A stretch of DNA of 54,037 nt from an uncultured Candidatus Saccharibacteria bacterium (GTDB lineage: Bacteria > Patescibacteriota > Minisyncoccia > Phycocordibacterales > PALSA-1337), in assembly GCA_964576745.1 (NCBI GenBank), contig CAZNUY010000003.1, forward strand, positions 1-54,037, in the 5' to 3' direction. How positions within the stretch are numbered: the stretch's first letter is position 1; every line of letters begins with the position of its first letter. The notes under the pieces were generated by a model. The model saw only the letters and a program-made list of their open reading frames with translations, was not told where the DNA came from and made no database searches. Positions 2,372 to 41,894 of this stretch are shown here, one piece after another. A program made the position numbers and the translations under genes.

Positions 2372-2485
2372 ATGGTTTTATTTCATGAAAAAACAAAAAA
2401 GGCCGTAGGGATCGGCTTTATTGTCGTTGGCATTCTTGTTGTCGTCAGTATGATCCTCGGCTCAATACCATATTTCTGGTATTAA
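2372..2485 (+). CDS. possible 37-aa single-pass membrane peptide (MVLFHEKTKKAVGIGFIVVGILVVVSMILGSIPYFWY)
   Basis: Hand-translated short ORF below the ORF-track cutoff; hydrophobic core; no other support. Confidence 0.2.
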   Translation: MVLFHEKTKKAVGIGFIVVGILVVVSMILGSIPYFWY

Positions 2486-2505: not shown

Positions 2506-2643
2506 CAGAATAACACACGGAGCAATTGTATTTTCTGAGAGGCTCCGCAGAAATTTTCAGCAGAAAATTTCGAGGATTAAGCCAGAATTCTGCAGAATTC
2601 TGGCAGTCTCGAAGAAAGTACAATTGCTCCGTGTGTTATTCTG
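2506..2643. ncRNA. structured three-way-junction element, copy 1 (25-bp outer stem, two inner hairpins, conserved junction strands)
   Basis: 2506-2530 pairs perfectly with 2619-2643. Inner hairpins are gaaattttc-AGCA-gaaaatttc and gccagaattc-TGCA-gaattctggc. A second copy at 48441-48574 has identical junction strands and compensated stems. Confidence 0.55.
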
Positions 2644-4507: not shown

Positions 4508-6187
4508 TTACATATGTTCCACTTCTGCAGGCGGTACGGGTGTCTTCCAGATCTTTTTGTGTAATGTAGTTATAACATCTTCTAACTCACGATTGTTCAG
4601 AAGTTTTAGCACTAGAACAAGAATAATTATACCCGTAAGACCTGCGCATAAGCCTTGAAGAAATAGTCCCCAAACCTTGGTCAAAGGAAATACAAGCGAG
4701 AAAACGCGAAGGCTCAAAAAGGCTACATACCCCATAATAATAGAACCAGCAAAGCTATGGAAAAGTGTAGAAAGGACGGGTTTCGAAAATCCTGGATAAG
4801 CCTTTTCGTACGTCAACCAATGTAAAACGGTATTGATAAAAGTTCCTATACTAAATGCCAATCCCAAAACCAAAACGCTCGTACCTACTTGGTCCGTAAC
4901 TTTTAACAAATCCTCAATAAAATATCGCAGGACAGGAAAAGCAAAATATGCACGATACAATGCCAAACCAGAACAAATTGTTACCACCGCTGAAATGACA
5001 TTTATGAATAAAGGCCTAGCGGTTTTGCCTTCGGCATAAAATGCTCTAACAAATAGTATTATCAGGCTCTGCCCAATCGTCGAAAAAGTAAAGATTGCCA
5101 ACATTGCAGCAGTAAGTCGGGTATCAGCCCAATCAAACTTACCAGCACCCAACACCGTTCTTACTATCTGCGCACGAAGAACAATGAATAGGACAGCAAG
5201 TGGCATTGACCAAAAGATAATATGCTGTGCAGAAGCGATCATCTTCTCTTTGAACTCTGTTATTCGACCCTTGAAAATCAACTTTGATAAAGTTGGAAAA
5301 ACTGCAGATGAATAACTTGCACCAATGAGCGTCATCGGTACTGATTGGAGGTTGAAAGCAAAATTGTATATCGATATAGAACCACTAGCCATGAGAGATG
5401 CAATCGAAACCAAAACAAAGGAAGAAAGTTGATTTGCTGATAAAGTAAGTGTGCGAGGAAAAGTGGTAATAGCAATTCTCCTAATGTCTGCCCATTTTAT
5501 ATTCAATGTAAAAACTGGAAACAACTTTTCATGGATCATAAAAGGAATCTGAATACCCATATGCAAGAAAGCTCCCACAGCAACGCCGACTGCCAAACCA
5601 GCAATACCAAAAATTGGATAACCAAACAATACTCCAGCTATTATTCCTGCATTATAAAAAACGGGACTAAAAGCATAAACCAAGAACCTATATCTCATCT
5701 GAGTCAAGCTAGAAAACAAATTTGAGAGACCAAGGAAAAATGGAGACAAGAGCATAATTCTCATCGATAAGATGAGCTCCGGTAACGCAGGATTATTGGC
5801 AAAACCAGGAATGATGATCGGTACGATATACGGGGCAACAATAAATACAACTGCACTCACCAAGATCATCCCACCAAAAAAGATAGTAAAGATACCATCA
5901 AAAAAGTTTTTTCCTTTATCTTTTGAGGATTCGAATTTCTCTATGAAATAAGGCAGGAGAATCGATGCGGAAACTAGAGAACCAATAGTAGTAAATATAA
6001 GATCCGGAACGCGAAATGCTGCATAATATATATCTAGAGCAGGGCCCGCACCAAAAGTGTACGCTAAAAGTTTATCCCGTATCAAAGCCAAAATTAGAGA
6101 AAGAAAAGCAAAAGATGCCAAGAGATAAGCGGCCTCATGTAGGCCGCGAATCTCTTGCCCTATAAATGTAAACCATCGCTTAACCAT
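4508..6187 (-). CDS. murJ: lipid II flippase MurJ/MviN
   Basis: 559-aa polytopic membrane ORF; N-terminal LSLILALIRDKLLAYTFGAG..DIYYAAFRVPD signature typical of MurJ. Confidence 0.8.
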   Translation of the reverse strand: MVKRWFTFIGQEIRGLHEAAYLLASFAFLSLILALIRDKLLAYTFGAGPALDIYYAAFRVPDLIFTTIGSLVSASILLPYFIEKFESSKDKGKNFFDGIFTIFFGGMILVSAVVFIVAPYIVPIIIPGFANNPALPELILSMRIMLLSPFFLGLSNLFSSLTQMRYRFLVYAFSPVFYNAGIIAGVLFGYPIFGIAGLAVGVAVGAFLHMGIQIPFMIHEKLFPVFTLNIKWADIRRIAITTFPRTLTLSANQLSSFVLVSIASLMASGSISIYNFAFNLQSVPMTLIGASYSSAVFPTLSKLIFKGRITEFKEKMIASAQHIIFWSMPLAVLFIVLRAQIVRTVLGAGKFDWADTRLTAAMLAIFTFSTIGQSLIILFVRAFYAEGKTARPLFINVISAVVTICSGLALYRAYFAFPVLRYFIEDLLKVTDQVGTSVLVLGLAFSIGTFINTVLHWLTYEKAYPGFSKPVLSTLFHSFAGSIIMGYVAFLSLRVFSLVFPLTKVWGLFLQGLCAGLTGIIILVLVLKLLNNRELEDVITTLHKKIWKTPVPPAEVEHM

Positions 6188-18309: not shown

Positions 18310-18326
18310 GATCTTAATTTCTAATT

Positions 18327-18348
18327 TTGTGACCCTACGGGGAGTCGA
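18327..18348. repeat. distal att-like direct repeat (copy of tRNA-Glu 3' end)
   Basis: Identical to 36710-36731. Confidence 0.85.
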
Positions 18349-18500
18349 CCTCGCCTCTCACTCGCTACCCGCTCGTTCGGGCTGGTCACCGGCTCGGCTG
18401 TTTCGCTTGCTAGCGAAACATGCCTCCGCCGTTCGCCTCCCCGACGCTCGCGCGCAGGCGCGAGCTTAGGCTCACACTCGCTACGCTCGTGTGACCTATT
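18349..18500. other. G+C-rich ORF-less structured module with a split reverse complement of the tRNA-Glu 3' end around a GCAG-loop hairpin
   Basis: ttcgcctccccg (18432-18443), AC, hairpin gctcgcgc-GCAG-gcgcgagc (18446-18465), T, taggctcaca (18467-18476), then the degenerate target gtgtgaccta (18489-18498). Confidence 0.6.
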
Positions 18501-18584
18501 AGCTTGGCTTTCAGAACTTACTAAACAAAGAGATTATATCAATTTGGCTCTAACTAATCTATCAGGTATTCTTGCTGAATAAAG

Positions 18585-22887: not shown

Positions 22888-22917
22888 TCGCACCTGCTGC
22901 CGAAGCTACAGGTGCGA
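22888..22917 (-). terminator. intrinsic terminator after purM (symmetric hairpin with A/T runs on both sides)
   Basis: tcgcacctg ... caggtgcga form a 9-bp stem, flanked by aaaaa and attttt. Confidence 0.6.
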
Positions 22918-22942
22918 GTATTTTTCAGGAACTTGTTCGAAC

Positions 22943-24046
22943 TCATCGAACCGCCAGCGTCTCGCCCGCGTACTCGAGACCTTTCGGCTTGATGACGACT
23001 TTCTTGTCGCCGTTCTCGATGTGCCCGGCAGCCAGAGCCTTGAGGCCGAGCTGTTGCGTCACCCCGAGAACTTTCTCGACGTCGGCTTCCGCCACGTAGA
23101 GCGCAAACCCTGCGCCCATGTTCAGGTTGCCGTAGGCTTCCTGATCATCGACCGGTCCATGCTCCTGGATGAAGCTGAAGATCGGAAGCTGCGTCGGAAG
23201 CGTGTCGATCATGTAGGCGAAAGGCTGCGTTGCCCGCATGAGCTTGCGCCAGCCGTGGCCGGTGACGTTCACCGCGTAGTGAATATCAACGCCTGCATCG
23301 AGGCAGTCTTCGACGAGGCCGACGTAAATGTGTGTCGGATCGAGAAGTGCTTCGCCGTAGCTTCGGCCGTCAGAGAGTTTCGTGAGATACCCGTCCGGCA
23401 GCTTATCGGCAATCTTGCGCGCGAGCGTGAGCCCGTTCGCATGGATACCCGAGCTTTCGACAATCACGATCATGTCGCCGTGAGCGATCTTACCGATGAT
23501 CAGACGCTCCTTCGGCTTCACGATTCCAATCGCGGAACCGGAGAGCACAACGGCTTCCGGAACCACGACACCCTTGAGAGTCGGCGTTTCGCCTCCGCCC
23601 CAAGTGCAGCGGGCCAAGTCGCAGGCTTTCTTCCAGCCGTTGACCAGATCGCGGGTGCGGTTCTCGTCATTGAACCAGTCTGAGACGCCGACTGCGAGAT
23701 GCATGGCGACCGAGAGAGGCAATGCGCCGAGTGTCACCAGGTCATTCACGATCATGGCGACCGTGCACTGAGCGACATGGTCGTAATACGATTTGCCGGT
23801 GAGGGCATACATCGCGTCCGCGACCAGGTTCTTGGTGCCGAGGCCTTCCTCCACATGAGCGAAGTAACTTTTAGCCGCTTCGATCAGGTAGGCGCTTTCG
23901 CCTCGTGAGGGTTCGAACTCCCGGAACTCGCCGCCATTGAGACGAGCGATGTTGCCAGCTGTTTCTCGCGCAGCAAGCTGCGCCATCCGTTTGAATGGGT
24001 CCATGGCATCGTAATTGACACCGGTACCCGCGTAGGTCATGTTCAT
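22943..24046 (-). CDS. purM: AIR synthase (PurM) family, phosphoribosylformylglycinamidine cyclo-ligase-like
   Basis: 367-aa G+C-rich ORF; EEGLGTKN (DGVGTK-like) and PurM-type N- and C-terminal domain layout. It is a divergent subtype. Confidence 0.7.
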   Translation of the reverse strand: MNMTYAGTGVNYDAMDPFKRMAQLAARETAGNIARLNGGEFREFEPSRGESAYLIEAAKSYFAHVEEGLGTKNLVADAMYALTGKSYYDHVAQCTVAMIVNDLVTLGALPLSVAMHLAVGVSDWFNDENRTRDLVNGWKKACDLARCTWGGGETPTLKGVVVPEAVVLSGSAIGIVKPKERLIIGKIAHGDMIVIVESSGIHANGLTLARKIADKLPDGYLTKLSDGRSYGEALLDPTHIYVGLVEDCLDAGVDIHYAVNVTGHGWRKLMRATQPFAYMIDTLPTQLPIFSFIQEHGPVDDQEAYGNLNMGAGFALYVAEADVEKVLGVTQQLGLKALAAGHIENGDKKVVIKPKGLEYAGETLAVR

Positions 24047-24090
24047 GTGTTGCTCCTTTTCTTTTGTGAAATGTTCAGATGCTGAACGTG

Positions 24091-24118
24091 ATATTACTTA
24101 AAATTTGACAAAAAGCAA
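24091..24118 (-). promoter_or_regulatory. sigma-70-like promoter of purM (TTGCTT, 16 nt, TAATAT)
   Basis: Plus strand atatta at 24091-24096 and aagcaa at 24113-24118. The whole module is nearly identical to the one upstream of purD. Confidence 0.55.
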
Positions 24119-24129
24119 ATAAAATAGGC

Positions 24130-24150
24130 CTACGATTTTTTAGGTCGTAG
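24130..24150 (-). terminator. weak hairpin terminator after purD
   Basis: ctacga/tcgtag stem with an A/T-rich loop and flank. Confidence 0.3.
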
Positions 24151-24177
24151 ACCATTTTGAGTTGGAGCAACACAACT

Positions 24178-25494
24178 TCATACTCCGAGAGACTTCGCGC
24201 CGATGTCCTTGCGATAATGCGCTCCTTCGAAATGAATGCACTCGACTCCGTTGTAAGCGTGATCGAGAGCTTCCTGAAGAGTTGCACCGAGTGCGGTGAC
24301 ACCGAGAACACGACCACCGGCAGTGACGAGCTGGCCATCAGCCTGTTTGGTCCCTGCATGGAACACGACGACGCCCGGAAGAATCTCGGCGTTATCGATG
24401 CCTGTGATCGGCAAACCTTTCTTGTAGTCGGGCGACGGATAGCCGCCAGACGCCATCACGATGCAGGCAGCGAAGCCGGGGTTCCACTCGACGTTAATCT
24501 CATGGAGCCGTCCATCAGCACATGCCTCGAAGATGTCGAGCAGATCAGTTTTCAGAAGTCGCATGTAAACCTGGGTCTCCGGATCACCGAATCGGGCGTT
24601 GAACTCGAGCACCGACAGGTCCCATTCGGGAACTGCTGGTGGATCGTTTCTCCGGACTTTGAGTCCCGGATAGAGTAAGCCAACAAACGGCGAGCCTTTT
24701 CCACGAAGACCTTCGAGGATCGGACCGACAATCTGTTCACCTGCAGCATCGTGGCTCACGAACCACGGCACCGGAGCAATCGTTCCCATTCCGCCGGTAT
24801 TCGAACCCTTGTCGCCGTCGAAGACAGGCTTATGGTCCTGAGCCGAGGGAAACATCTTGAACGACTTACCGTCGCAGAAGGCGTGGATTGAAACTTCTTG
24901 TCCTCCAGCGAACTCCTCGACAATGACTTCATCGCCGGCGCTTCCATGGAGCTTCTTGACCATGATCTCATCGAGAGCTTGTTCGGCTTCTGCGAGATCG
25001 TGGCAGACGTATGCCCCCTTTCCGAGAGCGAGACCCGATGCCTTCACCACGATCGGCAAACCTTGGTAGGCCGCGAAGTGGCGTCGGACATGTTCGAGTG
25101 CCTGCGTATGGTCAGTGTAAACATCGAAGTGCGAGGTTGGCACGCCTGAATCTTTCATGAGGCGTTTCGAGAACACCTTCGATGCTTCGATCTGCGCTGC
25201 GGCTTTGCTCGGACCGAAGATCTTCAGTCCTTTTGCCTGGAACGCATCAACGATGCCGAGCGCCAGCGGATCATCCTGACCCACAATGGTGAAATCAATT
25301 CCTTCCTTGAGTGCGAAGGCCAAGAGACCGTCCACATCCGTCGCTTTCACTGGGACGTTTTCTGCGATCTGTGCCGTGCCAGCATTGCCGGGGGCAACGT
25401 AGAGTTTTCCGAGACGTGGCGACTGATGAAGCTTCCATCCAATGGAATGCTCACGACCGCCACCACCAACGAGTAGTACTTTCATCTGGTTCAT
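24178..25494 (-). CDS. purD: phosphoribosylamine-glycine ligase (GAR synthetase)
   Basis: 438-aa ORF; MKVLLVGGGGREHSIGWKL N-terminus and ATP-grasp layout. Confidence 0.9.
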   Translation of the reverse strand: MNQMKVLLVGGGGREHSIGWKLHQSPRLGKLYVAPGNAGTAQIAENVPVKATDVDGLLAFALKEGIDFTIVGQDDPLALGIVDAFQAKGLKIFGPSKAAAQIEASKVFSKRLMKDSGVPTSHFDVYTDHTQALEHVRRHFAAYQGLPIVVKASGLALGKGAYVCHDLAEAEQALDEIMVKKLHGSAGDEVIVEEFAGGQEVSIHAFCDGKSFKMFPSAQDHKPVFDGDKGSNTGGMGTIAPVPWFVSHDAAGEQIVGPILEGLRGKGSPFVGLLYPGLKVRRNDPPAVPEWDLSVLEFNARFGDPETQVYMRLLKTDLLDIFEACADGRLHEINVEWNPGFAACIVMASGGYPSPDYKKGLPITGIDNAEILPGVVVFHAGTKQADGQLVTAGGRVLGVTALGATLQEALDHAYNGVECIHFEGAHYRKDIGAKSLGV

Positions 25495-25542
25495 GACTTG
25501 GTTCTCCTTTTCTTTTGTTAGAGGTTCTGTGTTCTGAGGCTG

Positions 25543-25570
25543 ATATTACCTAAAATTTGACAAAAGGCAA
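25543..25570 (-). promoter_or_regulatory. sigma-70-like promoter of purD (TTGCCT, 16 nt, TAATAT)
   Basis: Plus strand atatta at 25543-25548 and aggcaa at 25565-25570. Confidence 0.55.
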
Positions 25571-25585
25571 TAAAAATTTGAAAAG

Positions 25586-25613
25586 TTGCAAAAAAGATAT
25601 TTTTAATTAATAT
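25586..25613 (+). promoter_or_regulatory. sigma-70-like promoter of purN (TTGCAA, 16 nt, TAATAT), divergent from the purD promoter
   Basis: ttgcaa at 25586-25591 and taatat at 25608-25613; RBS taggagatagg before the ATG at 25653. Confidence 0.5.
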
Positions 25614-25652
25614 TCTTTTTAGATCATCAAACCAAATATAGGAGATAGGCAC

Positions 25653-26324
25653 ATGAGCAAATCGAAAGTTCTTGTCTTCGCGTCAGGGTCGGCTGAAGGT
25701 GGCGGATCGGGCTTTGAAAAGCTCATCCTTGCTTCCCGAGGTGGACCACTTGATGCAGACATCGTCGCAGTTGTTTCAAATCATGCAAACGGAGGAGTGC
25801 GTGCTCGGGCAGATAAGCTCGGCGTTCCCTTCCTCCACTTCCCGAAGCCATGGACCGCAGAAGCGTATCAAAAGTTCGCCTCCGAATCCGGTGCAGACTT
25901 CTTTGCGCTCTCCGGCTGGCTGAAATTGGTGACCGGACTCGATCCGGTTACCCGATTCAATTCACGGACTGTCTTCAACATTCATCCCGGACCACTTCCG
26001 GACTTTGGTGGTCCGGGACTGTATGGGCATCATGTCCACGAAGCAGTCATCGCAGCTTTCGGCCGGCGCGAGATCACACACTCGGCTGTTTCGATGCATT
26101 TCGTCACCGGCGAATATGATCGCGGACCGGTTTTCTTCCGGTGCAACGTCAAAATCAACGGAGACGATACAGCCGACACGATTGGCACCCGGGTCAATCA
26201 GCAGGAGCATATCCATCAGCCGAAAATCACCAGCATGGTGGTAAACGGTCTGATCAAGTGGGATGGAATCAATCCCGATTCGCTCCAAGTTCCGGAAGGA
26301 TACTCGGTCGAATGCTTCGCCTGA
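25653..26324 (+). CDS. purN: phosphoribosylglycinamide formyltransferase
   Basis: 223-aa ORF; VLVFASGS...NIHPGPLPDFGG formyltransferase motifs. Confidence 0.85.
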   Translation: MSKSKVLVFASGSAEGGGSGFEKLILASRGGPLDADIVAVVSNHANGGVRARADKLGVPFLHFPKPWTAEAYQKFASESGADFFALSGWLKLVTGLDPVTRFNSRTVFNIHPGPLPDFGGPGLYGHHVHEAVIAAFGRREITHSAVSMHFVTGEYDRGPVFFRCNVKINGDDTADTIGTRVNQQEHIHQPKITSMVVNGLIKWDGINPDSLQVPEGYSVECFA

Positions 26325-26345
26325 TTTACGCGCATGCGCATCATC

Positions 26346-26380
26346 ATGAGCGGTTCTGAAAAACGGACCGCTCATTTTTT
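26346..26380 (+). terminator. intrinsic terminator after purN
   Basis: tgagcggt / accgctca form an 8-bp stem followed by tttttta. Confidence 0.6.
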
Positions 26381-26402
26381 ATTTGAAATTAAGCAATTTT
26401 TG

Positions 26403-26430
26403 TTGCTTAAAGTCTAATTTTGAGTAATAT
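26403..26430 (+). promoter_or_regulatory. sigma-70-like promoter of purL (TTGCTT, 16 nt, TAATAT)
   Basis: ttgctt at 26403-26408 and taatat at 26425-26430. Confidence 0.5.
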
Positions 26431-26506
26431 GACGACTAGATAGCACCTCTCGGAGGTGCATTGTTTTTTGTCATCCCAAACGTAAACAACAAAAGAAGGA
26501 GAAGCC

Positions 26507-29500
26507 ATGATCTATCGCATGTATCGCCAGATGGACAGCGGCCTAGAACTTGGTTTCTACGTCGAAACCACTGGCCAGCTGTCCGAGCCGGAGCTTCAAC
26601 AGCTCCAATGGCTCATCGCAGAAACGTTCGAGCCGGCAAAGACCGGACTTGAACCCAGCCTCACAGCAGACGTTGTCGAGATTGGACCCAGGCTCTCGAT
26701 CGAGACTCCGTTCTCATCGAATGCCGTCTCTATCTGCCAGGCCATGGGGCTCGGCAGAATCACGCGCATCGAGCGCACGCATCGCTACGCCGGCAACGGC
26801 AGCTCGGACCACATTCTCAAGACTCGTCTTGATCGGATGACCGAGCAGCACTACCCCAGCGGGATCGAGACCTTTGACACCGGCGTCTCGCCGGATGATG
26901 TCCGAGTGATCGATCTCATTGGCCGCGGAAAGGCAGCTCTCGAGGAGATGAACAGCGCACTTGGCCTCGGCATGGATGCCAGAGACCTCGAGTACTATCA
27001 GCATCTCTTTGCGGAAGTCCTGAAAAGGAATCCGACCGACGTCGAACTATTCCAGCTGGGCAATGCCAACAGCGAGCACAGCCGGCACTGGTACTTCAAA
27101 GGTCAGATCGTCATCGACGGAACGCCGATGCAGGAGACTCTGTTCGAGATCGTTCAGCGACCGCTGAAAAATCTCGGCAGCGAAAACTGCAGCCTCGTTG
27201 CCTTCAGGGACAACGCCGGTGTGATCCAGGGATTTGGCACGCGTCTTATCCTTCCGGTCACGCCGGGCAAGCCTTCGGAAATGCGGCTCATGGAAAAGGT
27301 GATTCACATCACCTGCACCGCTGAGACGCACAACCATCCCACGTTCGTCGCACCGTTCCCCGGAGCTCAGACAGGAGCCGGCGGTCGGATACGCGACAAC
27401 AGCGCAGTCGGACGCGGCGGTATCGTCGGCATCGGTGTCGCCGGTTACTTTGTCGGAAACCTTTTCATTCCGGGTCACGAGATTCCTGGAGAGGCTATCG
27501 GCAAGGATAAGCCGTCGAAGTACGCTTCGCCGCTTTCGATCTTGATCGAGGGCAGCAACGGCGTGTCGAGCTACGGCAACCAGTTCGGCGAGCCTCTCAC
27601 ACTCGGCTTCACCAGAACCTACGGTCAGATGATCGGCAAAGAATGGCGCGAGCCACGCAAGCCGATTCTCTACAGCGGTGGCGTCGGGCATCTGTTCGAC
27701 GGGCATACTGCGAAGGAGACATCTGAAGTTGGAATGCTCATCGTGCGCATCGGCGGTCCTGCCTATCCCATCGGGGTCGGCGGCGGCTCAGCCTCAAGCA
27801 TGATGCAGGGCCAGAACACCGAGACGCTTGATTTCAACTCCGTTCAACGCGGTAACGCAGAGATGGAGAATCGTGCGAACCGAGTCATTCGGGCCTGTGT
27901 TGAGATGGGAGACAGCAATCCCATTTCGAGCATTCACGATCAAGGCGCTGGTGGTCCGAGTAATGTCCTTACGGAGTTGCTTGAGCCACTTGGTGGCAAG
28001 ATCAGCATTCGCGGTATCGTACTTGGTGACAAGACGATGTCCGTCCTCAAAATCTGGAGCGCCGAATTCCAAGAAGGATACGGACTCCTGATCAGGCCGG
28101 AGCAGATCGAGCTTTTCAAGTCGATCTGCAAGCGCGAGCGCGTCAACTGCGAAGTCCTCGGAGAAATCGACGGAAGCGGAAACGTTGTCGTTGAAGACTC
28201 CCTCAACGGGACAACGCCCGTAAGTCTCAACCTGGAGCAGATTCTCACGAACATGCCCCAGAAGACGTTCGAGTCAAATCGGCGGACCGAAGGCCTCAAG
28301 CCTCTGGACCTGCCGGACGTCACAGTCGCCGAAGCGCTTGAAAAAGTGTTCAGGCTTCCCAGCGTCGGCTCGAAAGGGTTCCTCGTTCACAAGGTGGACC
28401 GAAGCGTCACTGGGCTTGTATCGCAGCAGCAATGCTGCGGGATCGCCCAGATTCCAATCGCCAATGTAAGCGTGAATGCTCAGAGCCATTTCGGTTTGAG
28501 CGGAAGCGCCTCTGCAGTCGGCGAACAGCCAGTGAAGATGTTGATCGATCCGAAAGCTGGAGCTCGAATGGCGGTGGCAGAAATGTTCACCAACATGGCC
28601 TCGGCGCGGATCAGCGGTATCGGAGACATTCGATGCCGTGCAAACTGGATGTGGCCTGCGAAGTTACCACACGAAGGTGCCTTACTCTATGACGCTGCGG
28701 TTGCTATGTCTGACCTCATGGTTGGGCTCGGCATCGCAGTCGATGGCGGAAAGGACAGCCTTTCGATGGCTGCGACGATTTCGGGAGAGCTCGTAAAGGC
28801 TCCCGGAAGTTTGGTGATTCTCGGATACGCACCCGTGTCTGACATTACCAAGAAGGTCACGCCGGACATCAAAAAGCCCGGCGCTAGCAGTCTCGCATTG
28901 ATCGATCTTGGTCAGGGCAAAAATCGCCTCGGCGGTTCAGCTCTGGCTCAGGCATTCAACCAGCTCGGCGATAAGTCGCCTGACGTTGAAAATCCCAAGC
29001 TCCTCAAGAACGCGTTTCTTGCGGTGCAGCAGATGATCGGCGAAGGGTTGATTCTGTCTCTGCATGATCGAAGCGACGGCGGCCTCATAACCGCAGTAGC
29101 TGAGATGTGCATGGCGAGCCGGTGCGGATTCAATGTGAGCATCCCTCACGCTGCAGAAGCTCTGGCCGTCCTCTTTGGCGAGGAACCCGGGTTCGTTATT
29201 GAACTCGAGACTGTAAACGAAAAGCGGATTGTTGAAATCTGCGAATCGTTCGAAGTGCCGATCTCCACGATCGGTATCACCCTCGACAGCACATCATGCG
29301 TCGTCGATGCAAAAGATGCCGGAGAACTGTTCAGAAGTACTGTGATGGAACTCCGGAGCTGGTGGGAAGCCACAAGCGCCAAGATCGAAGAGCTGCAGAT
29401 GAACTCTGCGTGTGCCGAAGAAGAATACTCTGGTCACGAGGACCAGCTTCCCGGCATCGGTACGGCTCCGTCGTATCAGCTCTCATTCGCTCCAGTGGAA

Positions 29501-30331
29501 ACGCTTCCGGAAGTTTTGGAAGCGTCGGACAAGCCTTGCGTGGCAGTTTTACGCGAGGAAGGCACCAACGGCGACCGAGAAATGCTGGCTGCCTGTGCAG
29601 CTGCCGGTTTTGCTCCATGGGAAGTCACGATGAGTGATCTCCTTGAAGGCAGGATCGATCTGGATCAGTTCCAGGGCATCATCTTTGCCGGAGGGTTCTC
29701 CTACATGGACGTGTTCGACAGTGCAAAAGGCTGGGCAGGAACAATTCTTTTCAACGAGAAGTTGAGGGAGATGTTCAACCGTTTCTACGCCCGCGAGGAT
29801 ACGTTCTCGCTCGGCGTGTGCAACGGCTGTCAGCTGATGGCGCTGCTCGGATGGGTTCCCTGGAAAGGAATCGCCGGTGAAAAGCAGCCGAGATTCGTTC
29901 ACAACACTTCTGGCCGGTTTGAGTCTCGATGGGTGCAGGTGGAAGTTCTACCTAGCCCGTCGGTGCTTCTTGCCGGCATGGAAGGATCGAGGATCGGCGT
30001 GTGGGTCGCTCATGGTGAAGGTCTGCTGGTCTACCCAGATCAGTCGATCGCGCAGGAAGTTGCAGAGCGCAAGCTCTCTCCTCTCGCATACCTTGATCCG
30101 CACGGCAATCGGACGGAAGCATATCCGTACAATCCGAACGGCTCGCCGCTGGGGATTACGGCTCTGTGCTCTCCGGACGGGCGCCATCTTGCGATGATGC
30201 CTCATCCAGAACGTTGTTTCCGTTTGTGGCAATGGCCTTGGAAGCCAAACTCATGGAAAAGCCTCGAGGCTTCCCCATGGCTCCGAATGTTTCAGAACGC
30301 CAGACAATGGTGCATGGAACACCGGGCCTAG
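26507..30331 (+). CDS. purL: single-chain (large) phosphoribosylformylglycinamidine synthase
   Basis: 1274-aa ORF; TAETHNHPT and DNSAVGRGG synthetase motifs; C-terminal glutaminase GVCNGCQLM and MPHPER. Confidence 0.93.
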   Translation: MIYRMYRQMDSGLELGFYVETTGQLSEPELQQLQWLIAETFEPAKTGLEPSLTADVVEIGPRLSIETPFSSNAVSICQAMGLGRITRIERTHRYAGNGSSDHILKTRLDRMTEQHYPSGIETFDTGVSPDDVRVIDLIGRGKAALEEMNSALGLGMDARDLEYYQHLFAEVLKRNPTDVELFQLGNANSEHSRHWYFKGQIVIDGTPMQETLFEIVQRPLKNLGSENCSLVAFRDNAGVIQGFGTRLILPVTPGKPSEMRLMEKVIHITCTAETHNHPTFVAPFPGAQTGAGGRIRDNSAVGRGGIVGIGVAGYFVGNLFIPGHEIPGEAIGKDKPSKYASPLSILIEGSNGVSSYGNQFGEPLTLGFTRTYGQMIGKEWREPRKPILYSGGVGHLFDGHTAKETSEVGMLIVRIGGPAYPIGVGGGSASSMMQGQNTETLDFNSVQRGNAEMENRANRVIRACVEMGDSNPISSIHDQGAGGPSNVLTELLEPLGGKISIRGIVLGDKTMSVLKIWSAEFQEGYGLLIRPEQIELFKSICKRERVNCEVLGEIDGSGNVVVEDSLNGTTPVSLNLEQILTNMPQKTFESNRRTEGLKPLDLPDVTVAEALEKVFRLPSVGSKGFLVHKVDRSVTGLVSQQQCCGIAQIPIANVSVNAQSHFGLSGSASAVGEQPVKMLIDPKAGARMAVAEMFTNMASARISGIGDIRCRANWMWPAKLPHEGALLYDAAVAMSDLMVGLGIAVDGGKDSLSMAATISGELVKAPGSLVILGYAPVSDITKKVTPDIKKPGASSLALIDLGQGKNRLGGSALAQAFNQLGDKSPDVENPKLLKNAFLAVQQMIGEGLILSLHDRSDGGLITAVAEMCMASRCGFNVSIPHAAEALAVLFGEEPGFVIELETVNEKRIVEICESFEVPISTIGITLDSTSCVVDAKDAGELFRSTVMELRSWWEATSAKIEELQMNSACAEEEYSGHEDQLPGIGTAPSYQLSFAPVETLPEVLEASDKPCVAVLREEGTNGDREMLAACAAAGFAPWEVTMSDLLEGRIDLDQFQGIIFAGGFSYMDVFDSAKGWAGTILFNEKLREMFNRFYAREDTFSLGVCNGCQLMALLGWVPWKGIAGEKQPRFVHNTSGRFESRWVQVEVLPSPSVLLAGMEGSRIGVWVAHGEGLLVYPDQSIAQEVAERKLSPLAYLDPHGNRTEAYPYNPNGSPLGITALCSPDGRHLAMMPHPERCFRLWQWPWKPNSWKSLEASPWLRMFQNARQWCMEHRA

Positions 30332-30354
30332 GGATATGTTCCAAAGCCAATCCT

Positions 30355-30392
30355 GACCCCTTGCGTAGCAATGCGCGAGGGGTCTTTTATTT
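30355..30392 (+). terminator. intrinsic terminator after purL
   Basis: gaccccttgcg / cgcgaggggtc form an 11-bp stem (one G-U pair) followed by ttttattt. Confidence 0.65.
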
Positions 30393-30416
30393 AGATTCAA
30401 TTATATTAAAGCGACA

Positions 30417-30559: not shown

Positions 30560-30582
30560 TTCACAATATTCACGATGTTCAC
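30560..30582 (+). repeat. three TTCAC iterons, 9-bp spacing
   Basis: TTCAC at 30560, 30569 and 30578 (acattcaca atattcacg atgttcacg). Confidence 0.7.
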
Positions 30583-31813
30583 GTCCGAGGCTCGGCAGAC
30601 TGCCTCTATGAAGATGAAAATGACCATGTTAATGACATATTTACCTGAATGGAAAATCTATCTATGGAGAAAACTTTTATTGGAAGAAGAGAGTAATTTT
30701 AATGATCCTATCCTGCTCACTAGGTTCGTATTCTTTACTGAAATAGAACAACGACAAGAAACACGTAAGCGTCTGCTGCACTCCATTGATAGCCTGAACA
30801 ATGCCAAAAACGCTGCTCTAGTAACTAGATCACCAATGCTGATTGCTGATGGCAATCACACATCTCATACCGACGCTTACTATTCCTCTTATCCAAAGAA
30901 AGTAGGCTTGGCTCTTATCGAATTAGCAGAAAGTGATCCTGTTGCAATAAAGATTGAGAAAATAAATCTAAAGAAGGGTGATAAAAACAAAGATGTTACC
31001 GTTTCTGAACTGAAAGAGTTTCTTACTCCCTCATCAGATGTAATTTCTTTTGAGTACCTACAACTCAAAATAAAACTTGATAAAAAGGCTCTTGAGAAAA
31101 GACTAGGCACCTATCTGGATGCCTTCAGGGAAGGTGCTCTCCTTGCTGGACCAGACATTCGTTATTACTTCTTTGAAAAGCAGAAAGAAGATATTACTCG
31201 GTCCCTTCAGAATATGGCTAAAAAGTATGGAAATAAGAACATCACATTCACTTTAGATGAATTGGCCAAGAAAGGTGGATGGTATCAAAGAGACGAAAGA
31301 AACTACCGTCCTTTTGAAACCCTTTTTACACTGGAAAAACTGGGAGAGCTTGAGATTCATGACCTAAGAAAACATGAGATCATTCTTTCATTGAAGAAAT
31401 ACCTTTCGGCCGAGACTAAACAGTCTGCAGCTGGACCATCTATTCAAAAATCAGCTATTGAATCCATAAAATCAATTACTTTCATCTCTGAAAATAAGAA
31501 AGCAGATAAGGTGTCTTCTTTCTATATCAATCACCACATTCACGATGTTCACAAAATGCAGCGTTTGAGTGGTGAGGTCCGCAAATTAGCCAGGGTTGCA
31601 GCTGGTGAAGAAGTACCTTTTGAGAAGCAGACCCATGACTATATAAACACAAACAAGAATTGCGTACTCTATCGCAATGGCAAATATAAGCTGACCAAGA
31701 TCATTGACGGTCACAGCAGACCTCTCAAAATCAGTCGTGGCATCGAAGTAGAAATTATTGATGACAAGGTATTTAAGCGAAGACTAGCTGCAGCCGATAA
31801 AAACTCTGCTTAA
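30575..31813 (+). CDS. hypothetical island protein; start uncertain (the annotated ATG lies inside the iteron array; a later Met run MKMKMTM is possible)
   Basis: 412-aa ORF with AT-rich, host-like composition and no recognised motif; contains an internal iteron cluster at 31530-31552. Confidence 0.5.
   Translation: MFTSEARQTASMKMKMTMLMTYLPEWKIYLWRKLLLEEESNFNDPILLTRFVFFTEIEQRQETRKRLLHSIDSLNNAKNAALVTRSPMLIADGNHTSHTDAYYSSYPKKVGLALIELAESDPVAIKIEKINLKKGDKNKDVTVSELKEFLTPSSDVISFEYLQLKIKLDKKALEKRLGTYLDAFREGALLAGPDIRYYFFEKQKEDITRSLQNMAKKYGNKNITFTLDELAKKGGWYQRDERNYRPFETLFTLEKLGELEIHDLRKHEIILSLKKYLSAETKQSAAGPSIQKSAIESIKSITFISENKKADKVSSFYINHHIHDVHKMQRLSGEVRKLARVAAGEEVPFEKQTHDYINTNKNCVLYRNGKYKLTKIIDGHSRPLKISRGIEVEIIDDKVFKRRLAAADKNSA
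31530..31552 (+). repeat. three (A/T)TCAC iterons, 9-bp spacing, inside a CDS
   Basis: ATCAC at 31530, TTCAC at 31539 and 31548. Confidence 0.5.
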
Positions 31814-31874
31814 AGCAAGCTTAATCTTGCCGAAAGCCTGAAATCCCTTACAGCAGGGGCTTTTTTGTTATTGC

Positions 31875-31902
31875 TTTAAGAGCTATTTAAGCGTGCTTTA
31901 AG
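31875..31902 (+). promoter_or_regulatory. three TTTAAG direct repeats at 11-bp phasing, candidate operator upstream of 31964
   Basis: TTTAAG at 31875, 31886 and 31897. Confidence 0.35.
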
Positions 31903-31963
31903 TTTATCTCCGGACCTACGATGTAAGCAGATTTTTGCGAAATCTTTTATCAAAAATAATTAA

Positions 31964-32248
31964 ATGCTTATGAGAAAACATGTAACCAAGGTCCCGTTAG
32001 ATGACAATGAAAAATATCTGTCGAATGACATTGATGTAGCAGTAACGCTGCTATGCAAAGGCTATACCCTCGAAGATATTAAACTTCTTACCAATAAAAA
32101 GGCTACTTTCGTATTCAAAGATCATCCAGCTATTAAGGCTGCAGTTGATGGCTTTTGGAGTAACCGGATAGAAGTCCATCCTCTTGAGTTTGCGAATATT
32201 CGCAAGAACTTAAAATCACGCATTTACGCAATGCAGAAAGATTACTAA
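31964..32248 (+). CDS. DUF5659-like small protein
   Basis: 94-aa ORF. The pattern LLCKGYTL..I......ATFVF.D...I..AV..FW........P.EF.N..K.LKSRIY recalls DUF5659 (from memory). Confidence 0.5.
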   Translation: MLMRKHVTKVPLDDNEKYLSNDIDVAVTLLCKGYTLEDIKLLTNKKATFVFKDHPAIKAAVDGFWSNRIEVHPLEFANIRKNLKSRIYAMQKDY

Positions 32249-32263
32249 ACCAAATAAACAAAA

Positions 32264-33634
32264 ATGTATATGAATAATTACGAAGAACGAAAAGATAGAC
32301 CTATCTTTAAAACTACACTTTTGACTGGTGATGCTCTCTACGAAATGGTATACAGTCCGGTCCAGAAGAAAAGCTCCTATATCAAAACGGACCGACTTGG
32401 ACATACGGAAAACCTGGAGGAAGTAGAACTTGATGGTTATAAATACAGACCCTTGCCGCCAACCTATACCCTTGTAGACAAAAAGATTATTCACTTCCCA
32501 TCAATGGCAGCTTCTTACGAAAGCGAGGAAGAGATCTTAAATGAAATCAGAATCTTCATTCATAAGTACTTGGATATTTCTGAAATCTTTGAGCAGATCG
32601 CTAGTTATTACGTGCTCTTTACCTGGCTATTTGATCGCTTTAATGAGGTCCCATATCTCCGAGCCATTGGTGACTTTGGAAGTGGCAAATCACGCTTTAT
32701 CCAAGCAATAGGCATGCTTTGCTATAAACCGATAATGACTTCAGGCGCTACTGGCAGCGCTCCAATTTTCAGAATCCTAAGCCAGATACAAGGCACTCTA
32801 GTCATGGATGAAGCAGATTTCAAGTTTTCGGATATGACTTCTGAAATGATTAAAATCTTGAACTCTGGGTATCAGAAAGGAACTGCTGTTATGCGATGTA
32901 ATCCAAAAACTTTTGATCCAGAAGCATTTGATGTGTATGGTCCTAAGATTATTGCTACTCGTGAGACGTTTTCTGATAAGGCTCTTGAGAGTAGATTCTT
33001 GGTTGAGGAAATGGGTGCAGGAAAATTAAGGACCGACATTCCGAGAACACTAGATGAGACGTTCTATTCTGAAGCTGAAGCAATTAGAAATAAGCTACTC
33101 ATGTGGAGACTGAAGAATTATTTTGCTCCAATCGAAAGACGAACAGAAATTATCGAGGGTATTCATCCTCGACTAAATCAGATCGTGATTCCTCTCATGT
33201 CCATCATCAAGAATGACACCATTCGAGAGCACCTAAAGACATTCATCATTAAATACAACAGTGAGTTAATAGCTGATCGAGGTCTTACGTGGGAAAGTGA
33301 TATTGTTTTTGCAATTCTCAAGATTGAGCACGAAACAGGAGCTAGTGAGGTTACAGTCAAAAAAATAACCGAGGAAGTGAATAAAGAAAGTGACATCACT
33401 GACGACACTCTCCAAGCCAGGAAAGTGGGCTGGTATCTTCGCTCCAAATTACAACTAAAGTCATACAGAGGCAGACACGGTTTTACTCTTTCTTTTAAGG
33501 TAAATCGTAAGCGATTGGATATGTGGAAGGAACGCTTCGGTATTACCGATGCAGATATTCGAGGTGAACAAGTGAATGTCGTGAACGATGTGAACGTGCA
33601 GGAAGAGATTAAGCCAGAAGAAATAGCATTTTAA
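32264..33634 (+). CDS. P-loop NTPase (possible replication/mobilisation helicase-type ATPase of the island)
   Basis: 456-aa ORF; Walker A GDFGSGKS and Walker B LVMDEADF; the C-terminus is encoded by inverted iterons. Confidence 0.6.
   Translation: MYMNNYEERKDRPIFKTTLLTGDALYEMVYSPVQKKSSYIKTDRLGHTENLEEVELDGYKYRPLPPTYTLVDKKIIHFPSMAASYESEEEILNEIRIFIHKYLDISEIFEQIASYYVLFTWLFDRFNEVPYLRAIGDFGSGKSRFIQAIGMLCYKPIMTSGATGSAPIFRILSQIQGTLVMDEADFKFSDMTSEMIKILNSGYQKGTAVMRCNPKTFDPEAFDVYGPKIIATRETFSDKALESRFLVEEMGAGKLRTDIPRTLDETFYSEAEAIRNKLLMWRLKNYFAPIERRTEIIEGIHPRLNQIVIPLMSIIKNDTIREHLKTFIIKYNSELIADRGLTWESDIVFAILKIEHETGASEVTVKKITEEVNKESDITDDTLQARKVGWYLRSKLQLKSYRGRHGFTLSFKVNRKRLDMWKERFGITDADIRGEQVNVVNDVNVQEEIKPEEIAF
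33564..33594 (-). repeat. four TTCAC iterons in inverted orientation (GTGAA on the plus strand), spacing 8, 9 and 9 bp
   Basis: GTGAA at 33564, 33572, 33581 and 33590. Confidence 0.6.
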
Positions 33635-33652
33635 AAACCTAACTTAAATTTT

Positions 33653-34177
33653 ATGGAAAACAATCAAAATAAAGGTGGTCCAAAAACTCCTGAAGGAAAA
33701 GCTGTATCAAAACTTAACGCTCTCAAACATGGAATTTTGAGCCAGGAAGTGATGGTTGAGGGAGAAGATGAGAATACTCTCAAAAGTCTTAGTGAAGCTC
33801 TTATAGACGAACTGAAGCCTGGAGGACCGATTGAAGAGATGTTGGTGGACCGAATTATCTCTAGCCTATGGCGACTACGCCGATCCGTATCGGCCGAGAG
33901 GAACGCAATGGAATATATCAAAAATGAAGGTTTTCTTCTGGCTGGAATTGATGGTGTTTTTGATCCAAAACAAGACGCTCGTATCAAAGCCAAGAATATG
34001 CTTACCCATGAAGGGATTGAGACAATCTTACGCTACGAGACAACTATTGAAAGAAGTCTCTTAAAAGCGCTGCATGAACTAGAAAGAATCCAGGCTAAGA
34101 GAAGTGGTAAAGACGTTCCTCTGCCATCTGTGCTGGATGTGAATATTGATAGTTCGTTTGGCAAAAACGACCTGTAA
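33653..34177 (+). CDS. hypothetical protein (N-terminal GGPKTPEGKAVSKLNALKHGILS motif)
   Basis: 174-aa ORF in the co-oriented island gene string. Confidence 0.5.
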   Translation: MENNQNKGGPKTPEGKAVSKLNALKHGILSQEVMVEGEDENTLKSLSEALIDELKPGGPIEEMLVDRIISSLWRLRRSVSAERNAMEYIKNEGFLLAGIDGVFDPKQDARIKAKNMLTHEGIETILRYETTIERSLLKALHELERIQAKRSGKDVPLPSVLDVNIDSSFGKNDL

Positions 34178-34222
34178 ATATGGAGAATCCTTAATGATTT
34201 CGGCAGAAATATTGAAATTGAT

Positions 34223-34798
34223 ATGAGAAAGAACGAAGCTGACAACTACAAGAAAATACAGATATGGTGGCTTTTACGAGATATAAAGACAGGTCACAAA
34301 AATACCACTCTTACCTGGGGTGAGAATGGGTCCGATGGGAGTATAAATGTTGGTGTAATGCTGGTGGGTCCTGATAAATATGCTCGATTGACGTATAGCC
34401 AGACAGACAGGACCGGAAAGAATACAGACTTTGATTATAAGGTCCCAATTATTGAAACTCCCTGTAACTTTGGTAGCACTCGTTATTGGTTTAAGTGTCC
34501 ACTTATGAAAGATGGCCAACTATGTGGCCGACGTGTGGGCGTGCTCTATAAAGTCGATGATTATTTTGGCTGCCGGCATTGCTACAACCTCACTTACAGA
34601 TCACAAAATATAAATCGCAGGGATAAACTCTTCCCAATATTTAAAGCCTTTGAGATAGGAAAGAAAATGGAAAAACTCGGTGAGGCTAAGCGCTACACCT
34701 ACAAAGGAAAACTCACAAAGAAATTTAAGAAGCTGCAACAACTAGAAGAACAATCACTTGCAAACATCCAGAGCATTGCAGCGATGGAAAGACGCTAA
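34223..34798 (+). CDS. hypothetical Cys-rich (zinc-ribbon-like) protein
   Basis: 191-aa ORF; CNFGSTRYWFKCP...CGRRVGVLY...CRHCYNLTY. Confidence 0.5.
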   Translation: MRKNEADNYKKIQIWWLLRDIKTGHKNTTLTWGENGSDGSINVGVMLVGPDKYARLTYSQTDRTGKNTDFDYKVPIIETPCNFGSTRYWFKCPLMKDGQLCGRRVGVLYKVDDYFGCRHCYNLTYRSQNINRRDKLFPIFKAFEIGKKMEKLGEAKRYTYKGKLTKKFKKLQQLEEQSLANIQSIAAMERR

Positions 34799-34802
34799 CA
34801 CT

Positions 34803-35045
34803 ATGGAAAATAATTTATCAAATAATTCCAATACTGATCCTAAAACACCAACTCTTTCAAAAGTTGATTCAGAAACTGTGGATAAAAGTTCTGAAAAGCG
34901 TGCAAAGGGGTATATTCTTTCTGACGAAACTTTCAGAGCTTTGACGGATTTAGGCGATATTTTGAGAAGTATCCATCAGGACATGATTGATGAGGGGTAC
35001 GAGTTCGTTGATGGGACAATCCAGAAGAAAATTGATAAAATTTAA
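34803..35045 (+). CDS. hypothetical small protein immediately upstream of the recombinase
   Basis: Internal ATG (MENNLSNN...) of ORF 34758..35045, chosen to avoid overlap with the preceding gene. Confidence 0.4.
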   Translation: MENNLSNNSNTDPKTPTLSKVDSETVDKSSEKRAKGYILSDETFRALTDLGDILRSIHQDMIDEGYEFVDGTIQKKIDKI

Positions 35046-35048
35046 GTA

Positions 35049-36773: not shown

Positions 36774-36784
36774 ACGATAGGGCC
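36713..36784 (-). tRNA. tRNA-Glu (anticodon CTC)
   Basis: Reverse complement reads GGCCCTA-TC-GTCT-AATGGTTA-GGAC-A-CGGCC-TTCTCAA-GGCTG-TAAT-CGGGG-TTCGACT-CCCCG-TAGGGTC-A, 72 nt, and all arms pair. Confidence 0.9.
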
Positions 36785-41888: not shown

Positions 41889-41894
41889 GAAAAA

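Follow-up and report, generated by a model that had tools for sequence, protein, structure and literature searches.

Given that a 54,037-nt stretch of DNA from an uncultured Candidatus Saccharibacteria bacterium (contig CAZNUY010000003.1, positions 1 to 54,037; hereafter the window) carries two predicted three-way-junction elements, at 2506-2643 and 48441-48574, with identical junction strands and unrelated outer stems, we wondered whether these two copies belong to a wider family, and whether such a family acts as RNA, as single-stranded DNA (ssDNA) or simply persists as repeat DNA. Saccharibacteria, like other members of the candidate phyla radiation (CPR), have tiny genomes in which very few non-coding elements have been characterized. 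The two window copies belong to a family, not described before, of intergenic elements of ~135 bp that recur many times per genome within a restricted lineage of Saccharibacteria, and each copy consists of a conserved core of ~88 nt that is closed by a near-perfect, locus-specific inverted repeat of 24-32 bp. About 40 further copies, some of them truncated, occur in Saccharibacteria metagenome-assembled genomes (MAGs) and metagenome contigs, with a maximum of 10 per MAG. At ~10 or more copies of a structured element per ~1-Mb genome, the family likely matters to the cell.

These copies were gathered by scans of sequence collections, covariance model (CM) searches and look-ups of lepA and RAYT neighbors; the genome scan and the metagenome scan were each performed once and were restricted to exact patterns. 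With one genome per GTDB species, the genome scan returned 21 copies in four Saccharibacteria MAGs (10, 7, 4 and 2 per MAG) plus one chance match, and a differently anchored pattern yielded 11 more copies in metagenome contigs. The CM search that an earlier, sequence-only reading of the window had proposed brought up further copies in lepA-syntenic contigs: among contigs syntenic with the window, model R1 retrieved copies in L166, L167, L168 and L169 and truncated ones in L162 and L163. The same architecture thus recurs in 35 full-length copies from genomes other than that of the window, which is more than chance would produce.

That the same reading could assign the element to no family agrees with a search of the whole window against Rfam 15, in which no family reached its gathering threshold at either copy, including hammerhead, twister, twister-sister, hatchet, pistol, HDV-like, riboswitch, 6S, Y RNA and tRNA/tmRNA models. 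In E-value mode, the best matches to copy 1 were miRNA-precursor models (42 bits against a threshold of 83), part of a long-hairpin miRNA/snoRNA noise that comes nearest because of the long hairpin alone, and searches with the isolated core and with a type-2 relative (see below) gave nothing below E = 0.06. ARAGORN reported only the two real tRNAs of the window, viral contigs scanned with the junction pattern of the present family (type 1) gave 0 matches, PLSDB plasmids searched with the element gave none, and the literature searched on structured RNAs, repeats and non-coding RNAs (ncRNAs) of Saccharibacteria and Patescibacteria contained nothing relevant. A 16-base pattern of type-2 junction strands was unspecific in IMG/VR, and the chance matches listed (loci L023-L142) were disregarded. 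The family is confined to a narrow Saccharibacteria clade.

Fold of the two copies and conservation of the core

The two copies comprise the following parts.

2506-2643, + strand: copy 1, whole element, with its core on the plus strand (sequence, minimum free energy [MFE] and CM R1 at 149 bits)
2506-2530 / 2619-2643, + strand: copy 1, perfect outer stem of 25 bp
2506-2536, + strand: copy 1, 5' arm of the outer stem, pairing with 2613-2643 over 31 bp
2531-2549, + strand: copy 1, junction strand ttttctgagaggctccgca
2537-2538, + strand: copy 1, G-A of the tandem G·A/A·G internal loop, with its partner G-A at 2611-2612
2539-2544, + strand: copy 1, 5' strand of helix P2, GAGGCU, with its partner AGUCUC at 2605-2610
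2545-2549, + strand: copy 1, junction strand CCGCA
2550-2571, + strand: copy 1, hairpin P3 (hairpin 1), 9 bp with an AGCA tetraloop (2559-2562)
2572-2580, + strand: copy 1, junction strand gaggattaa, that is, GAGGAUUAA
2581-2604, + strand: copy 1, hairpin P4 (hairpin 2), 10 bp with a UGCA tetraloop (2591-2594)
2605-2618, + strand: copy 1, junction strand agtctcgaagaaag
2605-2643, + strand: copy 1, 3' part, made up of the P2 3' strand (2605-2610), G-A (2611-2612) and the 3' arm of the outer stem (2613-2643)
48441-48574, - strand: copy 2, whole element, with its core on the minus strand (CM R1 at 146 bits)
48511-48532, - strand: copy 2, hairpin P3, AGAAUUCUU-AGCA-AAGAAUUCU, four pairs unlike copy 1, all compensated
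48478-48501, - strand: copy 2, hairpin P4, GCCCAAAUAC-UGCA-GAAUUUGGGC, with one A·A mismatch at pair 87:94
48538-48543, - strand: copy 2, 5' strand of P2, GAGGCU, with its partner GGCCUC at 48472-48477

In the predicted fold of copy 1, an outer stem of 25 + 6 bp leads through the tandem G·A/A·G loop and the 6-bp P2 into a three-way junction with P3 and P4, of which P4 is stacked directly on P2 with zero linker. The 5' arm is locus-specific at 2506-2525 and semi-conserved over its proximal ~11 nt, and the U at 2531 is part of a conserved U·G wobble. Re-reading and alignment agreed base for base with the layout of copy 1 first described (stem, junctions and two hairpins), with the identity of the junction strands between the copies (19/19, 9/9 and 11/11) and with the perfect 20-bp outer stem of copy 2, whose sequence is unrelated to that of copy 1. 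The sequence-only reading had further stated that every change in the hairpins is compensatory; this holds for four pairs of hairpin 1 and two pairs of hairpin 2, but hairpin 2 of copy 2 also contains one uncompensated A·A mismatch (gcccaaatA-ctgcag-Aatttgggc, the capital A's being the mismatch). The additional pairing that it proposed beyond the outer stem is likewise present, except that its "gag/ctc" is really the 6-bp helix P2 (copy 1, GAGGCU/AGUCUC; copy 2, GAGGCU/GGCCUC). These versions of P2 differ by a G·U/G-C and a U-A/U·G exchange, both of which are compatible with pairing only on the strand that was first read. On this strand, copy 1 has an MFE of -84.4 kcal/mol (z = -18.4; none of 200 shuffles equalled it), which is better by 10 kcal/mol than the -74.2 kcal/mol of the opposite strand. 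Besides copies 1 and 2, a scan of the 54-kb window for inverted repeats of ≥18 nt (within 300 nt) gave only two pairs, both of them 19-nt overlapping palindromes rather than repeats with separated arms.

Across the family, the first 22 copies align without any gap over 144 columns. Mean pairwise identity reaches 99.8% at the unpaired core positions, about half of which were left unfixed by the search patterns, and 98.5% in P2; it is 74% in P3 and P4, 56% in the proximal 11 bp of the outer stem and 31%, the random level, in the distal outer stem. The junction strand CCGCA is present in 34 of 35 copies (CCACA in L168), the AGCA loop of P3 in 34 of 35 (UGCA in L169), and the 9-nt strand GAGGAUUAA is invariant save for L169 (GAGUAUUAA) and the truncated copy in L166 (GGGGAUUAA). 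P3 and P4 keep constant lengths of 9 and 10 bp, with (A/U)GCA loops. In the 35 copies, standard pairs fill 97.1% of the pair cells, compared with 71.2% in shuffles and 34-52% in slid controls; double changes are found at 39 of 50 pairs, all four helices covary, and RNAalifold independently gives the same helices. Both hairpins contribute strongly (P3, double changes at 8 of 9 pairs and 99.7% of cells paired; P4, 7 of 10 and 99.1%), and P2 covaries by way of the diverged L169 copy, in which G-C is replaced by A-U at two pairs.

Three conserved features depart from Watson-Crick pairing, and all three fall on one strand. These are the U·G at columns 29:116 (23 of 35 copies), the U·G that closes P2 at columns 42:103 (33 of 35) and the tandem G·A, whose G-A column 36 and partner columns 109-110 are invariant and whose column 35 is G in at least 90% of 22 copies. 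On the opposite strand, the same positions would read as C·A and pyrimidine-pyrimidine mismatches (U·C/C·U at the tandem G·A), and the variable arms show a similar bias, with ~11 G·U against ~3 A·C. Furthermore, within one and the same tract the single strands stayed fixed and the stems drifted, taking on variants specific to each genome. Taken together, the invariant single strands and the strand-specific non-Watson-Crick pairs require that selection act on a single strand of defined polarity in its folded state, and the unpaired nucleotides of the core are under purifying selection. The sequence-only reading had called conserved single strands with covarying helices the classical signature of a functional structured nucleic acid; a genuine conserved structured element is indeed what the family displays, although the compensated outer stem by itself is not specific to RNA.

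A type-2 relative was found at L004 5283-5424 (+ strand, 70 bits). It has a long closing stem, an AGCA-loop hairpin and a UGCA-loop hairpin, but its junction strands (CGUAUGCA / GAAUCAGA / GU) are unrelated to those of type 1, and it has neither P2 nor the tandem G·A. The two types occur side by side in opposite orientation in L004, and in L021 (3265-3461) and L006 (6860-6895) a type-1 element is nested between type-2 outer arms. Since what the types share is the pair of tetraloop hairpins, they suggest a partner that reads the hairpins and is probably bivalent.

Locus-specific arms and genomic context

All closing helices are at least 23 bp long, mostly 24-32 bp, and the long outer stem is a locus-specific DNA inverted repeat, its arms behaving like evolving DNA palindromes. 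Among seven orthologous locus groups, four (A, C, D and F) show the core turned around between flanks that are collinear, with the arms still homologous. After lepA, the window, L167 and L168 have the core antisense to that gene and L005, L162 and L163 have it in the sense direction; the copy 2 locus is orthologous to L015, L148, L152 and L166, and L011 holds the same locus upstream of mreB with an inverted core. Changes in one arm are mirrored in the other, as in a 1-bp indel present in both arms (L010- versus L147a) and a ~15-bp difference between the window and L168. Copies within a genome also resemble each other, in that one P3 variant is common to all four CAZYBH copies and one P4 variant to three of them, with orthologous copies in other genomes carrying P3 and P4 variants unlike these; copies are homogenized within a genome by concerted evolution or gene conversion.

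Template switching between the arms of inverted repeats is described, in the parts of the sources drawn on here, as homogenizing arms, inverting spacers and making or keeping hairpins (PMC8604942, PMC8794818, PMC13100816), and both the expansion of inverted repeats by this route (PMC13100816) and the creation and maintenance of RNA hairpins (PMC8794818, PMC8604942) are documented there. A perfect, compensated outer stem is thus expected from mutation alone and is weak evidence for RNA. The outer arms and the orientation of the core match template-switched repeats in their arm homogenization, mirrored multi-nucleotide changes, spacer inversion and expansion; mirrored arms and repeated flipping are equally the products of recombination between the arms. 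However, template switching is a mutational process rather than a function, and it does not explain why unpaired nucleotides stay fixed while adjacent stems drift; moreover, the conserved U·G and G·A asymmetries would be erased by templated correction. Whatever the element turns out to be, template switching can yield "perfect covariation" together with spacer inversion, which calls for caution in covariation-based discovery of ncRNAs.

All copies are intergenic, often filling almost the whole spacer, and for 12 of 20 the distance between the stem and a stop codon is 2-35 nt. Copy 1 is situated between the stop codon of lepA (2675, - strand) and a 37-aa open reading frame (ORF) at 2372-2485 (+ strand), and copy 2 lies 24 nt upstream of mreB (47333-48418, - strand). 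The neighbors are housekeeping genes: lepA and murJ by copy 1, and mreB, mreC and an SMC-like gene by copy 2. The 37-aa ORF is hydrophobic, convergent with lepA, without a Pfam match and conserved in L005, L167, L168 and L170; near copy 2, a 69-aa Cys-rich ORF (48625-48834, + strand), also without a Pfam match, diverges from mreB. A search for a partner gene by neighborhood, in which all ORFs of ≥60 aa located up to 3 kb from each copy were clustered, found none that was adjacent or consistent. The clusters that did recur were the element's own translations, syntenic orthologues, MreB paralogues (groups C and F) and, at a distance of 0.8-2.6 kb in two locus groups, a protein judged by eye to be MazF/PemK-like.

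In one relative, L170 (89% LepA identity), lepA abuts the convergent small ORF with no element or hairpin between them, so that at this locus at least the arms were not a pre-existing target hairpin; the flanking spacers are missing there as well, and the site is therefore not a clean excision or insertion scar. Three relatives at 88-90% LepA identity carry unrelated GC-rich non-coding tracts of ~300-700 nt (e.g., GGGGTCCCGCATCGCTGG...) after lepA instead of the element (L158 11810-12100, L160 11890-12300 and L169 3310-3700), and those of L158 and L160 match no Rfam family at the gathering threshold.

Two simple regulatory roles were considered and rejected. As in an invertible promoter switch (inverton), the core flips, but the distal arms have no consensus and the scan finds no promoter in the core, in which the P3 and P4 sequences vary between copies and so preclude a fixed -35/-10. 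For an intrinsic terminator, the scan shows no site at either copy, and the sequences after the stems are heterogeneous.

RNA, single-stranded DNA or repeat

Which molecule, then, does selection act on? The reading that we favor, albeit tentatively, is that the active form is a sense-strand RNA that is matured by RNase III and shows its two tetraloop hairpins to a protein. The closing helix would carry no sequence information and serve as plain double-stranded RNA; host RNase III would cut it to release a Y-shaped RNA of ~95-105 nt that retains the semi-conserved proximal stem of ~11 bp, and two tetraloop hairpins of the same type would be offered at fixed geometry to a probably dimeric protein partner. 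Copies that have been flipped and are not transcribed would be kept intact by gene conversion from other copies. RNA is favored by the conserved non-Watson-Crick pairs, since tandem G·A and U·G are standard elements of RNA helices; by the closing helix, an ideal RNase III substrate, helices of at least 23 bp being long enough for the enzyme; by the confinement of semi-conservation to ~11 bp beside the core, which would follow if the mature RNA retained this part; and by the presence of a canonical RNase III gene (Ribonuclease_3 and dsrm domains) in the window at 51896-52594 (- strand). This gene adjoins a nusB-NUDIX fusion at 52644-53558. Among known systems, the closest parallel is with RNase III processing stems (rRNA operons, phage T7 intercistronic sites and, by analogy, animal pri-miRNAs), in which a long, sequence-free and strictly paired helix likewise closes a functional RNA; unlike these, the element is randomly oriented with respect to genes, and its cleavage is a prediction.

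Several observations weigh against an RNA matured in this way. The element shows no preferred orientation with respect to its flanking genes (in tandem-gene contexts, ~5 locus states are sense and 6 are antisense) or to the nearest stop codon (5 against 5), and antisense copies have CM scores equal to those of sense copies. Scans for consensus promoters and terminators around both window copies stayed at chance level and revealed no conserved promoter, and an RNA dependent on both arms would be parted by an inversion from any promoter of its own. Among mismatches in ssDNA, too, T·G and tandem G·A are the most stable, and for this reason the strand signature cannot separate RNA from ssDNA. In P3 and P4, G·U intermediates occupy 2 of 665 cells, a scarcity more in keeping with DNA hairpins or templated correction than with drift in an RNA. 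Several traits are typical of repeat DNA: the high copy number, a patchy distribution among close relatives (absent in L158, L160 and L170), chimeric copies in which the left arm comes from one locus and the right arm from a different one (L006 6727-6870 and L156 5815-5939), and shortened copies (the L003 remnant at 5149-5200, and L162 11840-11881, which is the same as L163 2620-2661). With its many randomly oriented copies, the family resembles REP- or MITE-type repeats more closely than it does one ncRNA gene. Five contigs (L011, L012, L145, L146 and L166) end within an element, and together with the chimeras they indicate that these repeats are breakpoints for genome rearrangement and assembly.

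It is tempting to speculate further that the family represents a new class of Y-shaped small RNAs specific to a Saccharibacteria lineage, in which at least 10 dispersed genes per ~1-Mb genome would produce transcripts with 25-30 bp helices cut by RNase III in a pri-miRNA-like manner. Such RNAs may serve as bivalent scaffolds or sponges for a protein recognizing (A/U)GCA tetraloops, with gene conversion keeping them uniform and template switching flipping their loci; we regard this as conceivable rather than probable. A bolder variant, in which the locus-specific arms carry targeting information, found no support: 29 concatenated arms gave no blastn match at E ≤ 10 among 50,697 phage records, and orthologous arms drift as if neutral. 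If the RNA reading is true, the family would constitute a novel class of ncRNAs, unusual in gene architecture and acting with a putative protein partner.

The alternative that survives best, and to which we would give a real but minor chance, is that the sense-strand fold forms in ssDNA (the lagging-strand template or transforming DNA) as the substrate of a hairpin-recognizing Y1/HUH enzyme. A RAYT-like dimer would then bind the two (A/U)GCA hairpins, the family would be a REPIN-like repeat or one resembling an IS200/IS605-derived MITE (miniature inverted-repeat transposable element), mobile or domesticated, and the arms would have been generated and enlarged later by template switching, a route of inverted-repeat expansion for which part of PMC13100816 provides documentation. 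The window does encode a candidate enzyme, a 202-aa Y1_Tnp protein at 41895-42503 (+ strand; Pfam E 5.7e-7, above the cutoff) with HUH (NHIHI) and YIHLNPY motifs, whose only NCBIfam match is "REP-associated tyrosine transposase," below the cutoff of that model. Its gene is single-copy and syntenic in the relative L166, and is surrounded by short palindromes:

41766-41805, 41868-41890 and 42484-42522: flanks of the RAYT-like gene, inverted CTGAGGC-GCA/TGC-GCCTCAG palindromes

The GCA/TGC loop of these GC-rich palindromes recalls the element, both of whose tetraloops have GCA as their core, and GCA/TGC-loop hairpins appear over-represented in the window, at ~16 of 41 rows of its hairpin list, a rough estimate made without a shuffle test. 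Also consistent with ssDNA are the repeat-like traits of the family (multi-copy, intergenic, randomly oriented, with chimeras, truncations and patchy presence), the scarcity of G·U intermediates in P3 and P4, and the two hairpins in direct orientation on one strand, since dimers of Y1 transposases such as IS608 TnpA hold two hairpins. The RAYT-like gene has mraZ on one side and a gene for a class II aminoacyl-tRNA synthetase on the other, and its homologues number in the thousands across Patescibacteria.

Nevertheless, the linkage expected of a REP-RAYT pair fails in both the window and L166, where the gene is flanked by its own short repeat (CTGAGGC-GCA-GCCTCAG in the window) and not by the three-way-junction element. 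That flanking repeat differs in L166 (GCCGAGGT-GCA-ACCTCGGC), whereas P2 of the element is constant; a likeness between P2 (CTGA-GAGGC...GCCTC) and the palindromes was discarded as evidence on the same grounds. The RAYT-like family spans Patescibacteria and the element only a narrow clade. There is no sign of recent transposition, in that the arms within a genome all differ, no copy is short-armed and most copies occupy orthologous sites; neither a target-site duplication nor a conserved terminal cleavage motif was found, GTAG occurring near the arm ends in few locus groups. Finally, orientation shows no relation to gene strand or GC skew, unlike that of IS200/IS605 insertions.

Like REP, BIME and REPIN sequences with their RAYTs, as portrayed in portions of PMC3116915, PMC3733652 and PMC5581495, the element is multi-copy, extragenic, palindromic, present in either orientation and often located just downstream of genes; the long single-strand hairpins, the long vertical persistence and a single-copy RAYT-like gene sharing the genome with palindromes are further parallels from these sources. 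The element does have the high copy number, extragenic location, either orientation and long single-strand hairpin of a REP. However, REP and REPIN arms are conserved around a variable loop or spacer, and here the arms are unrelated and the interior, a three-way junction rather than a loop, is invariant; membership was rejected because the distal arms are 31% identical, in place of conserved 20-40 nt arms, with no consistent GTAG or CGTC tag, and the element does not flank the RAYT-like gene. IS200/IS605 ends, PATEs and integron attC sites resemble it in their strand-specific single-stranded fold with conserved mismatches on one strand, IS200/IS605 also in having two same-strand hairpins, and attC in conserving structure over sequence and in its position directly after an ORF. 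On descent from IS200/IS605 the observations are mixed: the genome holds two same-strand hairpins and a Y1 enzyme, but no cleavage-site motif, linkage or orientation bias was found; no tnpA/tnpB or intI adjoins the element, and there are no arrays. In attC, moreover, the outer R boxes are conserved and the center varies, the opposite of the element, and attC was rejected on this reversed pattern and on the dispersal of copies beside housekeeping genes such as lepA and mreB. If the ssDNA alternative is true, it would extend REP/RAYT-type systems to CPR bacteria with an inverted design, in which the interior is conserved and the arms are free.

The remaining alternatives rank lower, as they either leave the invariant core unexplained or failed direct tests. 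Correia, ERIC and REP elements are thought to act in cis when transcribed, and the element could likewise be an orientation-independent cis element, its ~30-bp hairpin serving as an RNase III site, a block to 3' exonucleases or a barrier to transcription while the core has no function; we consider this improbable. It would suit the intergenic position close to stop codons, the great stability of both strands (-84 and -74 kcal/mol), the presence of RNase III, the A- and T-tracts that resemble bidirectional terminators at the outer arm ends in L007, L016, L022, L143 and L150, and the report, in part of PMC3733652, that REPs lie mainly downstream of coding regions and are plausibly transcribed. 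But 26 invariant unpaired nucleotides, fixed-length hairpins and strand-specific pairs remain unexplained while the arms randomize, no consistent U-tract follows the stem, ~10 copies per genome are too few for a general terminator, and in L170 lepA and the convergent ORF abut without any hairpin. MITE-like repeats such as Neisseria Correia, enterobacterial ERIC and pneumococcal RUP/BOX elements are comparable in size (100-150 bp), intergenic position, dozens of copies and a transcript that forms a whole-length hairpin; their transcripts are sensitive to RNase III/E and act on neighboring mRNAs, and they serve as recombination substrates (PMC3184786). They have conserved terminal inverted repeats and target-site duplications, and the element, which conserves its core rather than its termini, has neither. 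The MITE assignment was rejected because the termini are unconserved, no direct repeat flanks the element, and filled and empty lepA sites show no duplication. Overall, the design of the element reverses that of known bacterial repeat families, with an invariant structured interior and free self-complementary arms; it works most like REP/REPIN or Correia-type repeats, of neither of which it is a member, or alternatively like an RNA excised from a processing stem.

Even less likely is functionless palindromic repeat DNA kept by template-switch correction and gene conversion. Mirrored indels, spacer inversions, chimeras, truncations and within-genome concerted evolution are all in its favor, as are parts of two sources in which hairpins arise and persist by template switching without selection (PMC8794818, PMC8604942). 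Yet gene conversion cannot fix 26 unpaired nucleotides across at least six diverged genomes, whose flanking genes share ~75% DNA identity, the more so as adjacent stem positions drift to genome-specific variants and template switching would erase the U·G and G·A asymmetries. A self-cleaving ribozyme or riboswitch, of known or new class, is highly improbable: its three-way junction with invariant junction strands and a CUGA...GA motif superficially like the hammerhead core are set against the lack of any matching ribozyme or riboswitch model (for the isolated core, even at E ≤ 10), junction lengths of 5, 9 and 0 nt instead of the 7, 4 and 1-3 nt of the hammerhead core, a type-2 relative that keeps the hairpins with wholly different junction strands, and the random orientation relative to genes, which excludes a cis-regulatory riboswitch. 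The hammerhead itself, which needs CUGANGA / GAAA / UH strands, was rejected, the element having CCGCA, GAGGAUUAA and 0 nt, and no Rfam match.

Other features of the window

At 1507-1834, a 157-bp unit is perfectly repeated in tandem (2.1 copies at 100% identity), and the repeat extends over the 3' end of tRNA-Gly(CCC) (1815-1886, - strand). Each unit holds a GC-rich palindrome, GCACGCCC-GCAG-GGGCGTGC, and the whole has the appearance of an attachment site that was duplicated or of some very recent duplication. At 18325-18510 (- strand), a GC-rich intergenic stretch of ~180 nt in this AT-rich genome folds to -90 kcal/mol (z = -5.5) with a 9-bp AGCA-loop hairpin. It matches no Rfam family and may be an unannotated structured RNA or a REP-like palindrome cluster.

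Two larger regions stand out in composition or gene content. A purine-biosynthesis cluster at ~22900-30400 (an AIR-synthase-like gene, purD, purN and a 1274-aa large-type purL) has a GC content of 48-55% against ~38% in the rest of the window, which suggests horizontal acquisition. It is followed at 30575-36784 by a run of plus-strand ORFs, most without a Pfam match and one encoding a DUF5659 protein, which ends in a 574-aa large serine recombinase (35049-36773) that abuts or overlaps tRNA-Glu(CUC) (36712-36784, - strand); this run is probably an integrated mobile element.

Close to the RNase III gene, the palindrome ACAGAGGT-GTC-ACCTCTGT occurs at 51451-51471 and again at 51868-51886, bracketing a 111-aa ORF (51461-51796) without a Pfam match. 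Within this bracket, at 51509-51529, lies another GC-rich palindrome, GCGAGGC-GAG-GCCTCGC, which is also found as an inverted doublet in L010 (3719-3826).

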